Source: a virus (lineage: Duplodnaviria > Caudoviricetes). From it: a stretch of 64,000 bases of DNA. Numbering within the stretch: the stretch's first letter is position 1; every line of letters begins with the position of its first letter. Where the stretch lies: positions 1 to 64,000 of the IMG/VR virus record IMGVR_UViG_3300037249_000698, one strand, 5' to 3'. Below, in pieces: positions 13,925 to 61,648 of this stretch. A program made the translations under genes and the position numbers. The notes under the pieces were generated by a model. It was not told the origin of the DNA, did no database searches, and was given only the letters and a program-made list of their open reading frames with translations.

Positions 13925-14135
13925 AAATGGAGTATAACACATGATTAACGAATTTGGAAAGCACACCTAGCACTATACCAACAGGAAAGCAATTAATAAA
14001 CACAATGCCGATGTGCTTTCTAAATTCTAGGTGAGATACAGGTAGCTAAGGAGAAAACAATGAAAGAAAAAACTACCTGTATCTCCTGCCTATTTTATTT
14101 TACTTTGCATAGGCGGGCAAAGTAGGAGTATATAT
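13925..14135 (-). ncRNA. candidate multi-hairpin sRNA with anti-SD/anti-AUG loops
   Basis: 16-bp and 13-bp stems; loops/linkers complementary to RBS+ATG. Confidence 0.55.
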
Positions 14136-39868: not shown

Positions 39869-39934
39869 AAATAGTGTTTGACAATAAAACAAAATTAGTT
39901 TAGAATGATACTCATAAATCGTTAAACACTATTT
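39869..39934 (+). promoter_or_regulatory. early promoter enclosed by inverted repeat
   Basis: TTGACA-N17-TAGAAT; AAATAGTGTTTGAC/GTTAAACACTATTT. Confidence 0.8.
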
Positions 39935-40920: not shown

Positions 40921-40983
40921 TGTGCATAAAGTCACAAAATAAATTAAAAAGTAATTGCAATTTGAATTTAATTTAATTATAAT
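40921..40983 (+). promoter_or_regulatory. promoter with CRP-like site at -61.5
   Basis: TGTGC-N6-TCACA; TTGCAA-N17-TATAAT. Confidence 0.75.
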
Positions 40984-46248: not shown

Positions 46249-46517
46249 TGATAAAAGAACCTGTTAGCTGTGGAGAAGATGATTCCGAATCATCATCACC
46301 ATTTTGGCAATACGTATTCTTCACAGTATTTATTTTATTAGCCATTGTTTCTGTGGTAGTGTGTGCAGTCTTATACGACACTCGCACATCCGAAACAGTT
46401 GTGATTGATAGTCCTAAAACCAATCCCATCACCATCCACTCCTACACTATTCAATGTACTCATAACGATGAATATTACTGTTCAGAGTACAAAGTGTATA
46501 AAATTATTAGAGATTAG
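46245..46517 (+). CDS. membrane protein
   Basis: single TM. Confidence 0.6.
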   Translation: MMIKEPVSCGEDDSESSSPFWQYVFFTVFILLAIVSVVVCAVLYDTRTSETVVIDSPKTNPITIHSYTIQCTHNDEYYCSEYKVYKIIRD

Positions 46518-46566
46518 AGAGATATTATTATGCAGTTAGTTATCAAATATAATACAAGGAGTTAAA

Positions 46567-47040
46567 ATGCAGTTAGTTATTAAATACTTACATCACGAAG
46601 AACAGCTTAAAAACACAACTTTCACCCCTCACGGTCAATCCGCAGGTTACGACCTATGTGTTGCCGTGGATGAACCTGTTGTTCTGCAACCTAATGAGTC
46701 AAAGTTACTCCCTACAGGTATTTCTTTACGCATGTATCAATTTGACTGCGGTGGATTTATCTTTCCGAGAAGTGGTCTAGGCTCAAAAGGTATCGTTCTG
46801 CGTAATACCGTAGGCGTTATCGACCCTGACTATACAGGCGAGATTAAGTTAGCGGTGTGGAATACAACAAACGAACCTGTGACAATCGAGCCGTTTCAGC
46901 GTGTGGCACAAATTGTATTCCTGCCTGTGATACATCCATCTGTGTTTTACGCAAGCTCTACTGAATATACTTTGCCTGACCAAGAATTTAAAGGTGTAGT
47001 TACTCGTGGCGACAAAGGCTTTGGCTCGACAGGTATTTAA
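46567..47040 (+). CDS. dut: trimeric dUTPase
   Basis: AGYDL, PRSGLG, GVIDPDYTGEI, RVAQ, RGDKGFGSTG. Confidence 0.95.
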   Translation: MQLVIKYLHHEEQLKNTTFTPHGQSAGYDLCVAVDEPVVLQPNESKLLPTGISLRMYQFDCGGFIFPRSGLGSKGIVLRNTVGVIDPDYTGEIKLAVWNTTNEPVTIEPFQRVAQIVFLPVIHPSVFYASSTEYTLPDQEFKGVVTRGDKGFGSTGI

Positions 47041-47076
47041 AACATTTTGATATAAACATCTTCTAAGGAGTTTGCT

Positions 47077-47340
47077 ATGATTATGCTTATTGTAATTTTA
47101 TTGGTTGTAGTTTTACCATTTACAATCTTTTATGCTTTTGCATCTTCCGACCCAAGTGCGTGTGCTTTTACTATAACAGGCGTTATTATATGCCAGTTGC
47201 TTGACTCTGCATGTGGAACAACAGTATTTTTTCTAATTGTCGGCTCTATGTTTGCTTGGTGTTTTTACGTTATCGGTCAATTTTGTTATGACGCTTACAA
47301 AAATTACAAAAAAGGCAAAAAATGGTTCGATATTGGCTAA
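47077..47340 (+). CDS. membrane protein
   Basis: three hydrophobic stretches. Confidence 0.65.
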   Translation: MIMLIVILLVVVLPFTIFYAFASSDPSACAFTITGVIICQLLDSACGTTVFFLIVGSMFAWCFYVIGQFCYDAYKNYKKGKKWFDIG

Positions 47341-47379
47341 AAATACTTGCAAAACATTTTTAATTTGTTATAATAGCTA

Positions 47380-47461
47380 TATCAAAGTTCATATTTTGAT
47401 ACTCCTTATGTGAAGTTGTTTGTGTTATACCCACGGTCGCTTTTTGGCTGTGGGTTTTTTT
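47380..47461 (+). ncRNA. candidate sRNA with anti-SD/anti-AUG and GU-rich seed
   Basis: own promoter 47347-47374, G-U-containing terminator, no ORF. Confidence 0.65.
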
Positions 47462-47486
47462 ATATTTTGACGTTATATAATTCCAT

Positions 47487-47519
47487 TTGCTACTCTAATT
47501 GCTACTCTATTTGCTACTC
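47487..47519. repeat. 3x TTGCTACTCTA tandem repeat
   Basis: direct repeats upstream of lysis promoter. Confidence 0.8.
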
Positions 47520-47617
47520 AATTTACCCTTTAAAAGCGTTTTCTTAAACATAGTGTATAATATCCGTATAAAGATGTGTTAATAGTCGATAAATTATACG
47601 TAATAAGAGGTTGAGAG

Positions 47618-48112
47618 ATGATTTTTAGTAGCAAGATTCCTGACGATGGTAAAAAAGCATTATTGCAATTACAACAACAGTTCGGATGGTCAGAAGATCA
47701 ACTCGATTACCTTATTGCTTGTATGAAATTCGAGTCAAATCTTAATCCGCAAGCCGTAAATAAGGCTTCGGGTGCTGTGGGTTTGATTCAGTTTATGCCT
47801 AGTATCTGTAAAGCATACGGCACAACCGCAGAACTTATGAAATCTCGCTCTTTTGCCGAACAGATACCTTACGTTAAAAAGCATTTTCTCCCTTATTACA
47901 AACGTACTTGCACCCTTTCCGATATGTATATGGCTATTCTTTATCCTAGCTGTATCGGTAAGCCTGACGATTATCCTATGTTCGTCAACGGCAAAAAATA
48001 TGAACAGAACAAAGGTCTTGATAAAAACAAAGATCATATAGTCACAAAAATCGAGGCTACTCTTATGGTTTTAAAGTGCTATGAGCAAGGTTTGCAAGAT
48101 AGAGGACTATGA
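47618..48112 (+). CDS. endolysin, SLT-type lytic transglycosylase
   Basis: KFESNLNPQA, GAVGLIQFMP. Confidence 0.88.
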   Translation: MIFSSKIPDDGKKALLQLQQQFGWSEDQLDYLIACMKFESNLNPQAVNKASGAVGLIQFMPSICKAYGTTAELMKSRSFAEQIPYVKKHFLPYYKRTCTLSDMYMAILYPSCIGKPDDYPMFVNGKKYEQNKGLDKNKDHIVTKIEATLMVLKCYEQGLQDRGL

Positions 48113-48113
48113 A

Positions 48114-48443
48114 ATGTTTGATGAACAGTTTAAAGAAATCTTGAACGGCTTGTTATTTGCCGTGATAGCAGGTGTAGGAGGTTCTGTGGCATATTTATCT
48201 TCATTGTTCGGCAACCGTAAAAAGTTCGTGCTATTCGACTTTTTTGTTAAGGTTTTGTCAAGTGCGTTCGCAGGTCTGCTGATAGGTTGGCTTTTGAGCT
48301 ACTATCAGTACCCTATTTCAGTCATTTGTTCCGTTACAGGTACAGCAGGCTATATAGGGGCAGATTTTACTATCAACCTATTAAAACGCATCATTACAAG
48401 TAAGGCAGAATTAGTCGTTGTTGACAAGGAGAATGACAAATGA
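48114..48443 (+). CDS. holin (3 TM)
   Basis: three TM segments, SAFAG and AGYIG motifs, lysis context. Confidence 0.8.
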   Translation: MFDEQFKEILNGLLFAVIAGVGGSVAYLSSLFGNRKKFVLFDFFVKVLSSAFAGLLIGWLLSYYQYPISVICSVTGTAGYIGADFTINLLKRIITSKAELVVVDKENDK

Positions 48444-48976
48444 ACTGGTTAAAAATTCTCCCACAGGCTCTACTCGGTGTTACTTGGCTCATTCTGTTCG
48501 CAACCGGATATTACATGGGGTCAGACGCTACTAATCAGCGTAATGAACTTAAACAGAGCCAAATTACTAATGATTATCAGAATAAAATTAACGAACTTGT
48601 TGAACTTGTACGTTCACAGGAAATTGCAAATCAACACAAAATAAACACTATTATTTCAGAACAGCTTGAAAAAGAGGAGATGATTAAAAATGACTACGAA
48701 AACATTATTGAAGATTTGCGTAATAACACACTTGTTGTTGATGGGTTGCACGAATGTAAAGACAGTTCAAACACCAAAGCAGATATGCCCCGAAATAAGC
48801 CAGTTACCGCCGAACTTGTCTGTTTTACAAAAGCCGATTTATACGGAAAAATTGAAAAAAGTTTGGCTATCACAGCCGAATGTGACAAAGTAGTTGAGAA
48901 ATACAATGCTCTGCTAAAGGTCTATAACGAACAATTTAACACATTAAACCATAAAGAGGCTTTATATGGAAAATGA
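48440..48976 (+). CDS. i-spanin (Rz-like)
   Basis: N-terminal TM + coiled coil after holin. Confidence 0.8.
   Translation: MNWLKILPQALLGVTWLILFATGYYMGSDATNQRNELKQSQITNDYQNKINELVELVRSQEIANQHKINTIISEQLEKEEMIKNDYENIIEDLRNNTLVVDGLHECKDSSNTKADMPRNKPVTAELVCFTKADLYGKIEKSLAITAECDKVVEKYNALLKVYNEQFNTLNHKEALYGK
48690..48893 (+). CDS. o-spanin (Rz1-like lipoprotein) embedded in Rz
   Basis: AGGAG RBS, lipobox LLMGC, Pro-rich, +1 frame. Confidence 0.8.
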   Translation: MTTKTLLKICVITHLLLMGCTNVKTVQTPKQICPEISQLPPNLSVLQKPIYTEKLKKVWLSQPNVTK

Positions 48977-52876: not shown

Positions 52877-53731
52877 ATGGCATTTAAAGATCCTAACACA
52901 AAAACTTTTCAACCTATCGTAGATTCTCTCGATGGTGTTGATGAAAACATTAAGTCGCTTTATGCAGAGACTACTGACGGTAAGTATCAAATTCGAGCTG
53001 ATATAGCATTTCAGAGCGACTTTGAACGTGTGCGTGATACTCTCACAAAAGAACGTACAAGTAATAAAGAGTTAAACGCAAAACTGAAAGAATTACAGTC
53101 TAAACTCGATGCTTACGGCGGTATCGACCCGACAGGCGTAAAGGGTATGCAGACTGAACTCGCTAACCTTAAATCTACCGAAACTGATTTGAGCAAGATT
53201 AAGTCTAGTAAGGCAGATTTAGAGTTGCAGTTTAAAAACTTAAAAGAACAGTTTGATGAACTCTCTAAAATCAATCAGCGTTACGAAAAAGAACGTACTG
53301 AACAGCGTCTAAAAGACAGTGCTAGAAAGGCGTTTGGTGATAACGGCATTTTAGACAGTGCTATGGAAGATGGTCTGTTATGGGCAACACAGGTACTTGA
53401 AAGTGCCGAAGATGGCTCTGTAAGAGTTAAAGACGGTACTAAATATCCTGCCGGGGTAAGCGTTGACAGTTGGGTTCAGCTTTTCAAGAAAGACAAGCCA
53501 CATCTTTTCGGTGGTTCTGTCGGTGGCGGTGCAGGCGGTAGCGTAAGCAATTCAATAGAAATTGAAAACTGGACTAACACAGGTCTTGATGGTGGCATCA
53601 ACATTACTAAGTTAGCACAGGCAATTAAGGAAGATCCAAAGGCTGTAGTTGCCGTTGCAAAGGCTAAAGGACTTGAAAAGGTGTTAAGAGAACGTTACGG
53701 TTATCTCTATAATCAAATCGCTGATAAGTAA
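52877..53731 (+). CDS. capsid scaffolding protein
   Basis: coiled coil, PHLF..GGGAGG. Confidence 0.8.
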   Translation: MAFKDPNTKTFQPIVDSLDGVDENIKSLYAETTDGKYQIRADIAFQSDFERVRDTLTKERTSNKELNAKLKELQSKLDAYGGIDPTGVKGMQTELANLKSTETDLSKIKSSKADLELQFKNLKEQFDELSKINQRYEKERTEQRLKDSARKAFGDNGILDSAMEDGLLWATQVLESAEDGSVRVKDGTKYPAGVSVDSWVQLFKKDKPHLFGGSVGGGAGGSVSNSIEIENWTNTGLDGGINITKLAQAIKEDPKAVVAVAKAKGLEKVLRERYGYLYNQIADK

Positions 53732-53778: not shown

Positions 53779-53808
53779 GTTTATACTATTTATCGTGTAT
53801 AATAAAAA

Positions 53809-53856
53809 TACTCCTTTATTTGTGACTTTTGGGGTTGAGAAATCAACCCCTTTTTT
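53809..53856 (+). ncRNA. candidate ~48-nt anti-SD sRNA
   Basis: TATAAT 53798, TACTCCTTT, terminator GGGGTTGA-gaaa-TCAACCCC-T6. Confidence 0.55.
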
Positions 53857-54016
53857 AACAAAAATACCGCTTTTTTCAGAAAATTTAAAAGTGTGATATT
53901 ATAGTATCTGTTACGAATACGTGATGTTGAGTAGCAATCTTCGGTGCGTGATGCTAAGAATGATTTAATAAAGTTATTTTTTGTTTTAATGTTATTTTTA
54001 TAGGAGATGGCTACTC

Positions 54017-61578: not shown

Positions 61579-61648
61579 GTTTTATGATTTTAGTGTATAA
61601 TATCACTACCTATTTGTTTTCTTTCTTTTAGCTAAAGGATTAAATAAT

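Follow-up and report, generated by a model that had tools for sequence, protein, structure and literature searches.

The uncultured, rumen-type phage analyzed here carries, directly before its lysis genes, a compact stretch (unit A, positions 47347-47461) in which a strong promoter, a short sequence bearing a CUCCU motif and an intrinsic terminator follow one another. Comparison with metagenomic relatives indicates that unit A is a real unit. We lean, at about even confidence, toward reading its predicted product as a trans-acting anti-Shine-Dalgarno (anti-SD) RNA that is biased toward the start regions of early genes. The complete virus record measures 95,133 bp and has direct terminal repeats; its first 64 kb form the window examined, in which positions are counted from the first letter.

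Genomic position of unit A

Unit A lies where the early/middle genes end and the late genes begin, in a 277-nt gap free of open reading frames; the dUTPase gene and an 87-aa membrane ORF flank it on the left and the endolysin operon on the right (Table 1). The endolysin gene is followed by genes for a LydA-type holin, a spanin and the small and large terminase subunits. All genes around unit A lie on the plus strand, as does the terminator of the unit. With the terminator ending at 47461 and the endolysin gene starting at 47618, this short unit is directly upstream of the late and lysis genes, just where the original prediction had placed it.

No GenBank phage matched the DNA of 46500-48500. 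The nearest genome-binned relatives of the endolysin (L097, which is the contig of L004, and L096) belong to the rumen 'uncultured proteobacterium RUG065' bin and a fecal Eubacteriales MAG, and more distant binned relatives are mostly from Proteobacteria. A Gram-negative rumen host is only a lead, drawn from the bins that hold related endolysins.

The space between the dUTPase gene and unit A is a variable cargo slot (47077-47340 in the window, L009:2608-2877, L012:1926-2873). It holds the 87-aa membrane ORF, an unrelated 89-aa membrane ORF, a Dam-type methylase gene or nothing. The 87-aa ORF has about three hydrophobic segments and a basic C-terminus, a holin-like shape.

Table 1. Features in and around unit A, with unit B (positions in the window)
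Feature	Position	Strand	Remarks
dUTPase gene	46567-47040	+	left of unit A
87-aa membrane ORF	47077-47340	+	last gene before unit A
-35 hexamer TTGCAA	47347-47352	+	identical in L002; TTGAAA in L012
Extended -10, TGT then TATAAT	47366-47374	+	T47366 G47367 n; TATAAT at 47369-47374, identical in L002
5' hairpin	47380-47401	+	arms 47380-47387 / 47394-47401 in the MFE structure; anti-SD single-stranded directly 3'
Predicted ncRNA, about 81 nt	47381-47461	+	start A47381 inferred from -10 spacing; 3' end is the U tail
Anti-SD core UACUCCUUAUGUGA	47400-47413	+	contains ACTCCTTA at 47401-47408; one substitution relative to L002
GU/U-rich tract GTTGTTTGTGTT	47415-47426	+	before the terminator; retained in L002 only
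Intrinsic terminator	47429-47461	+	stem-loop 47429-47455, then U7
Three tandem TTGCTACTC, 12-bp spacing	47487-47519 (within 47482-47524)	+	between unit A terminator and late-class promoter
Late-class promoter TAGTGTATAATAT	47551-47563	+	serves the endolysin-terminase operon; identical 13-mer at 61591-61603
SLT-type endolysin gene	47618-48112	+	first gene right of unit A
Unit B	53796-53856	+	late-class promoter, core ACUCCUUUAUUUGUGA, terminator

Architecture of the predicted RNA gene

The promoter of unit A has the form TTGCAA-N16-TATAAT with a TG extension (47347-47374), as originally described. It is a near-consensus sigma-70 promoter (score 10/12) and ranks among the top three of 26 promoter-like sites between 44 and 51 kb. 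Its promoter is thus of the full sigma-70 kind also seen at 40955, an early promoter.

The antisense ribosome-binding region that had been noted in this unit is present as a 22-mer. The minus strand carries TAAGGAGTATCAAAATATGAAC at 47387-47408, and the plus-strand RNA therefore reads GUUCAUAUUUUGAUACUCCUUA. In the lowest-energy fold the single-stranded stretch after the 5' hairpin opens with ACUCCUUAU / CUCCUUAUGUGA; the core of the unit may also be given as ACUCCUUA. Judged by its letters, ACUCCUUAU is a putative mimic of the anti-SD tail of 16S rRNA. Within the RNA, the 12-mer TTCATATTTTGA (47388-47399) recurs as TTTATATTTTGA directly after the terminator (47459-47470).

The terminator stem has 11 pairs, six of them G-C and three G-U, and is the strongest terminator between 44 and 51 kb. 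Because three of its pairs are G-U, the minus strand folds much worse than the plus strand (-13.6 vs -22 kcal/mol), and the T run after the hairpin occurs on the plus side only. These pairs fix the orientation of the unit, as had been claimed. Since no other terminator was found after 43729, that of unit A also ends the upstream operon (43.8-47.3 kb). Promoter and terminator are 55 nt apart. Folding of an 84-nt RNA gave z = -4.25, with none of 200 shuffled sequences folding as well, and another fold run gave z = -3.65.

Promoter-like and terminator-like sites as such are no commoner locally than in shuffled sequence. Since these matches are not locally enriched, comparative evidence decides. 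The case for unit A rests on the strength of its elements, their juxtaposition in an ORF-free gap and their conservation in relatives.

Unit A has the layout of an Hfq-dependent sRNA, namely its own promoter, a U-rich stretch ahead of the hairpin and a Rho-independent terminator with a U tail of at least six residues. This tail has seven U residues in the window and six in each of L002, L009 and L012. The GU tract reported earlier is present, and we presume that it may be a U-rich module of the Hfq type. Its proposed role as a GcvB-like seed is unsupported. Among the relatives only the closest, L002, retains the tract, which L009 and L012 lack, and the one perfect 12-nt complement beside a start site is no more than chance would give. 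The RNA was also compared with Rfam covariance models, including Spot 42 (RF00021), Ref84 (RF02846), Hrs13 (RF02631) and GcvB, with the gathering threshold as the criterion. The best scores were 28.1 bits (threshold 52), 21.1 bits (80) and 15.7 bits (52), all with E above 2, and GcvB was absent from the matches even at E up to 10.

Conservation of unit A in relatives

A small clade of metagenomic relatives was gathered by endolysin and large terminase searches. Exact-pattern scans of IMG/VR with the cores of units A and B found no contigs beyond the relatives already gathered. Three of these relatives (L002, L009 and L012) have a promoter, a short CUCCU-bearing RNA and a terminator at the equivalent spot.

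In L002, whose endolysin is 99% identical, the promoter hexamers are identical at 12/12 positions whereas the 16-nt spacer between them matches at only about 3/16. The RNA core differs by one substitution, and one G-U pair of the terminator has become A-U. L002 folds into an equivalent architecture with a longer 5' stem, and the core is single-stranded in both MFE folds. In L023 the differences are confined to the terminator loop and tail. L012 has a recognizably homologous promoter, TTGAAA-17-TAATAT with TGn, and a terminator of the form CCCAC...GUGGG-U6 whose inner pairs differ on both sides. The 16-nt loop of this terminator bears ACCUCCUU, and a second anti-SD motif, GUCCUC, is found in the 5' part of the L012 RNA. 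In L009, TGCTATAAT is followed by an RNA with GACUCCUCCUAAG and then by a terminator; the promoter has no recognizable -35 hexamer and was not called by the promoter scanner.

The CUCCU motif is thus found in all four lineages with differing flanks. Only three sequences were alignable, and no compensatory base changes were seen in the 5' hairpin among them. The gene preceding the unit is the 87-aa membrane ORF in the window, the dUTPase gene in L002, the unrelated 89-aa membrane ORF in L009 and the Dam methylase gene in L012. With four different upstream genes, the unit is tied to its position before the late operon and not to a neighboring gene. The retained position, the CUCCU-type anti-SD motif and the identical hexamers around a diverged spacer all support the original prediction of a stand-alone plus-strand unit.

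Other relatives lack the full unit. L003/L027 have only the terminator, L010, L017 and L019-21 have only a promoter, and L004, L022 and L024-26 have no intergenic space. Since only four lineages carry the unit and close relatives do without it, unit A is dispensable.

A second unit with the same core

Unit A was originally taken as a member of a proposed system, and a second member of this small system can be recognized. Unit B shares the core AUACUCCUU with unit A, reading AUACUCCUUUAUUUGUGA where unit A reads AUACUCCUUAUGUGA. It is driven by GTGTATAATA, a motif found again at 47554, ahead of the endolysin gene, and at 61594, ahead of another late gene. Copies of unit B were found in L007 (9240-9320), L008 (9235-9310) and L009 (9215-9295). 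Its core ACTCCTTTATTTGTGA is invariant in these three relatives and the terminator hairpins differ. The TCACAAAT complement of unit B recurs in the start regions of the genes at 52877 and 63292.

Genome-wide, TAAGGAG is nearly always the SD sequence of a correctly oriented gene. In the rightward block from 31.5 to 81 kb, sense ACTCCTT has two copies only, one in unit A (47401) and one in unit B (53810). Among about 22 strong terminators, only those of units A and B have CTCCT within 70 nt upstream. Two tiny units with a common core and different promoters suggest, therefore, that the phage has a pair of related anti-SD RNAs, each served by a promoter of a different class. Two features are unusual, namely the conservation of position despite turnover of sequence and an early/late pair with one common core.

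TAAGGAG also occurs with an ATG on the plus strand at 14030-14090, where a 21-codon frame lies in a 13-bp inverted repeat (GAGATACAGGTAG ... CTACCTGTATCTC). This frame sits in an otherwise minus-strand tRNA region, and the hairpin would sequester its SD sequence.

Pairing with start regions

Scans of the whole genome for duplexes and contiguous complements, which were noisy, found no outstanding target; a few perfect 12-mers occurred, about as many as expected by chance. Across 179 candidate start regions the duplex energies of the core form a continuum (mean -9.0, SD 2.7 kcal/mol) with no outlier. The best-pairing starts are 25165(-), 42749, 45709, 93266(-), 31617, 91648(-) and 39948. The original prediction had noted a closeness of the antisense region to the starts at 39934, 42735 and 43170. 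These do share TAAGGAGTA, an A-rich spacer and the ATG with it, but the likeness is loose and needs gaps, and no other site in the window is within 3 mismatches of the 22-mer. As targets the three starts rank high but are not outliers.

A class difference was found where single targets did not stand out. Core pairing averages -9.7 kcal/mol for 28 starts of the early rightward block vs -7.2 kcal/mol for 30 late starts (Mann-Whitney p = 1e-4, nested ORFs removed), and none of 200 shuffled cores matched this gap. The RNA is thus matched to ribosome-binding sites of the early type, a bias that may simply mirror stronger SD sequences in early genes. Complementarity beyond the generic SD reaches 8-10 nt at most.

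The main rival holds that the anti-SD sequence is tuned to the flanking ribosome-binding sites, those of the last gene of the upstream operon, of the endolysin gene or of both. The RNA would then act against premature or excess expression, either in cis on read-through transcripts or in trans. As a regulator of the lysis gene it would recall the T4 gene e hairpin, and more generally the action of c4 RNA on ant. The upstream operon's mRNA carries unit A as its 3' UTR. Lengths of match lend this idea some weight. The longest SD-centered complement to the unit's own upstream gene is 8 nt in the window, 8 nt in L009 and 7 nt in L012, cross-genome matches are mostly 5-6 nt, and the longest complement to the unit's own endolysin start is 9 nt in L009 and 7 nt in L012. 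L009 has only two AGGAGG-type SD sequences in 10 kb, and these belong to the two genes that flank the unit, each reading TTAGGAGG. Against it, the endolysin match is only 5 perfect nt in the window and in L002, and L002 matches its own upstream gene (6 nt) less well than the upstream gene of the window (7 nt). Duplex energies gave no backing to a match between individual unit A variants and the endolysin start of their own genome, as they have no own-vs-cross pattern; the window RNA has its best duplex energy against the endolysin start of L003, even though L003 lacks the unit. The matrix of match lengths, own against cross, is only suggestive, and the statistics are weak because only four lineages are available.

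Predicted read-through transcripts bear on the same question. For L009 the fold joins the endolysin SD to unit A by 9 bp, and a hairpin of the T4 gene e type involving the unit was found there only. In the window and in L002 the endolysin SD (47606-47615) pairs instead with 47517-47531. Cis action on the endolysin gene would also need read-through of a very strong terminator. Relatives that lack the unit carry an anti-SD arm ahead of their late promoter, and shielding of the endolysin SD thus appears to be a recurring need. Taken with the evidence on both sides, regulation specific to the neighboring genes seems to us a rather doubtful, if the strongest, competitor of a trans-acting RNA directed at early genes.

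The arm at 47517-47531 lies just upstream of the late-class promoter, and transcripts from that promoter would lack it. In L010, L017, L020 and L021 an equivalent shielding design has the promoter inside the hairpin loop.

Termination, the late promoter and the repeats

The next alternative sees the terminator as an insulator that shields the lysis genes from early transcription. The promoter would be real or fortuitous, and the RNA would be functionless or would bind a protein. L003/L027, with a terminator alone at this spot, fit such a role, as do the closing of the 43.8-47.3 kb operon by the unit A terminator and the failure to find a specific target. However, the two promoter hexamers have stayed conserved although the spacer between them diverged, and units A and B each show conservation of the anti-SD core. 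To set a strong promoter 55 nt ahead of the terminator protecting the lysis genes would presumably do harm if the RNA had no use. A sponge of the CsrA type can be discounted because GGA motifs are missing from the RNA. We consider an insulator with an RNA by-product unlikely.

Unit A could also be a late leader of the lambda PR'-tR' kind. Its promoter would then be the true late promoter, a phage factor would allow read-through of the terminator and the short RNA would be a by-product. Its place directly before the endolysin-holin-spanin-terminase operon and the combination of a constitutive-looking promoter with a strong terminator speak for this, since lambda 6S RNA and StxS arise in that way. 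With a separate late-class promoter, TAGTGTATAATAT, between terminator and endolysin gene, the role of late promoter does not fall to unit A. The motif of this promoter recurs at 53796 and 61594, and relatives with an equivalent late operon lack unit A and retain the late-class promoter. The complete 95-kb record has no match to the Q antiterminator families PF06530, PF03589 and PF06323, although a divergent antiterminator is possible. A late leader is therefore a weak alternative, and we think it very unlikely.

The recurring word (T/C)(A/C)GTGTATAATA was found at 47551-47563, 53796-53805, 61591-61603 and 15446(-), where it fronts the lysis operon, unit B, another late gene and the tRNA region, respectively. 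It probably represents a late (or middle) promoter class of the phage.

Besides the tandem array downstream of the unit A terminator, exact copies of TTGCTACTC occur at 53929(-) and 60303(+). L030, L031 and L003/L027 have different short direct repeats at the equivalent place. The repeats may be binding sites for an activator of late genes. The sRNA word TTGATACTC resembles the tandem TTGCTACTC, but its one-mismatch matches are near chance (16 found, 12.5 expected).

Coding potential

No conserved ORF was found on either strand of unit A. The original prediction gave the antisense ATG only 10 codons, and the frame indeed reads MNFDIAIITN before a stop. It is not conserved, because the corresponding frame of L002 encodes an unrelated 40 aa with only Met-Asn in common. 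A minus-strand mini-gene in which TAAGGAG-N8-ATG drives this 10-codon peptide deserves almost no credence, since L009 has no start codon behind the antisense SD, no minus-strand promoter was found upstream and the surrounding genes and the terminator are all on the plus strand, even though the SD, spacing and ATG are perfect and L002 retains both SD and ATG. On the plus strand, a 45-codon GTG frame (47410-47547) was rejected. It crosses the terminator and has no SD, and L002 has indels and a different ORF pattern there (a 47-aa TTG frame).

A type I toxin-antitoxin pair was considered as well and rejected, because the RNA has no constant partner gene. No conserved small hydrophobic toxin gene adjoins it. 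Only in the window and L009 is the unit preceded by a small membrane ORF, and these two ORFs are unrelated, while the dUTPase gene precedes it in L002 and the methylase gene in L012. A non-coding plus-strand RNA is, on these comparisons, the economical reading of unit A.

Comparison with known systems

In position, the closest analogues of unit A are StxS of the Stx phages and lambda 6S RNA. Both are PR'-tR' transcripts that bind Hfq and act in trans (PMC7547250; bioRxiv 10.1101/2024.10.31.621285). Like them, unit A would produce a short RNA from a strong promoter, with an intrinsic terminator immediately upstream of lysis and late genes. In those systems the promoter is the late promoter and Q antitermination is needed, whereas unit A has a separate late-class promoter downstream and no Q homologue was found in the record. 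There is also no sequence similarity, the present phage has no sign of lysogeny and its close relatives lack the unit.

In mode of action, the closest analogues are the c4 antisense RNA of P1/P7 and the sar RNA of P22, phage RNAs of about 80 nt in which exposed short stretches block a ribosome-binding region (PMC12197685). Unit A would likewise give an RNA of about 80 nt with an exposed stretch complementary to ribosome-binding sites, the pairing being predicted here. In contrast to c4, which is processed from the operon transcript that it regulates and has one target, ant, unit A is equipped with a promoter of its own and an anti-SD core of generic type, for which the scans gave no single target.

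In purpose, the nearest parallels come from T4. The RegB endoribonuclease inactivates early mRNAs at the GGAG of their SD sites, and a hairpin of gene e hides the lysozyme SD in early read-through transcripts (PMC3014915). Both are functional analogies only, since T4 relies on a protein nuclease in the case of RegB and on a cis-acting element in that of gene e, whereas unit A is predicted to be a separate RNA gene. A cis arm like that of gene e appears to be used in this phage group (47517-47531 with 47606-47615), and unit A of the window is not its predicted partner.

The layout of the unit is in the style of enterobacterial sRNAs such as GcvB and Spot 42, and the GU stretch recalls region R1 of GcvB. 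Yet there is no Rfam match to GcvB, Spot 42 scored 21.1 bits against a threshold of 80, and the GU tract is not conserved past the closest relative. From its sequence, unit A would belong among the phage-encoded regulatory sRNAs with an anti-SD seed, and it falls in no curated RNA family.

Proposed role of unit A

As a trans-acting anti-SD RNA, the product of unit A would work as follows. Host RNA polymerase would transcribe the unit from its near-consensus sigma-70 promoter from the start of infection. The RNA of about 80 nt would end at the strong terminator that also closes the upstream early/middle operon, and Hfq may assist it. It would then base-pair in trans with ribosome-binding sites of the UAAGGAGU type and block binding of the 30S subunit. 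Such sites mark early genes, and probably the gene just upstream, far more than late genes. With these early sites occluded, the RNA would help to turn down early translation as infection proceeds. Unit B, with its late-class promoter, would supply an equivalent core late in infection and so reinforce the damping of early genes.

A bolder form of this proposal, which we regard as improbable, is a translational clock made of RNA only. Two paralogous mimics of the 16S tail, one under a host-type early promoter (A) and the other under a late-class promoter (B), would titrate the UAAGGAGU-type early sites and hand ribosomes over to late messages, whose SD sequences are weaker and different. The motif would be re-tuned in each lineage to the local SD flavor. 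Such a clock, if true, would do with RNA what RegB does in T4, and virulent phages in general could use it to order their gene expression.

To our knowledge, the small RNAs of virulent phages have hardly been explored, and the known cases come mostly from temperate coliphages. The 277-nt "intergenic" gap before the lysis genes of this phage holds a predicted RNA gene, which is of value for annotation. If the preferred role is correct, a conserved copy of the ribosome's docking sequence, matched to early messages, would give the phage a protein-free translational shut-off of early genes that is both simple and testable.
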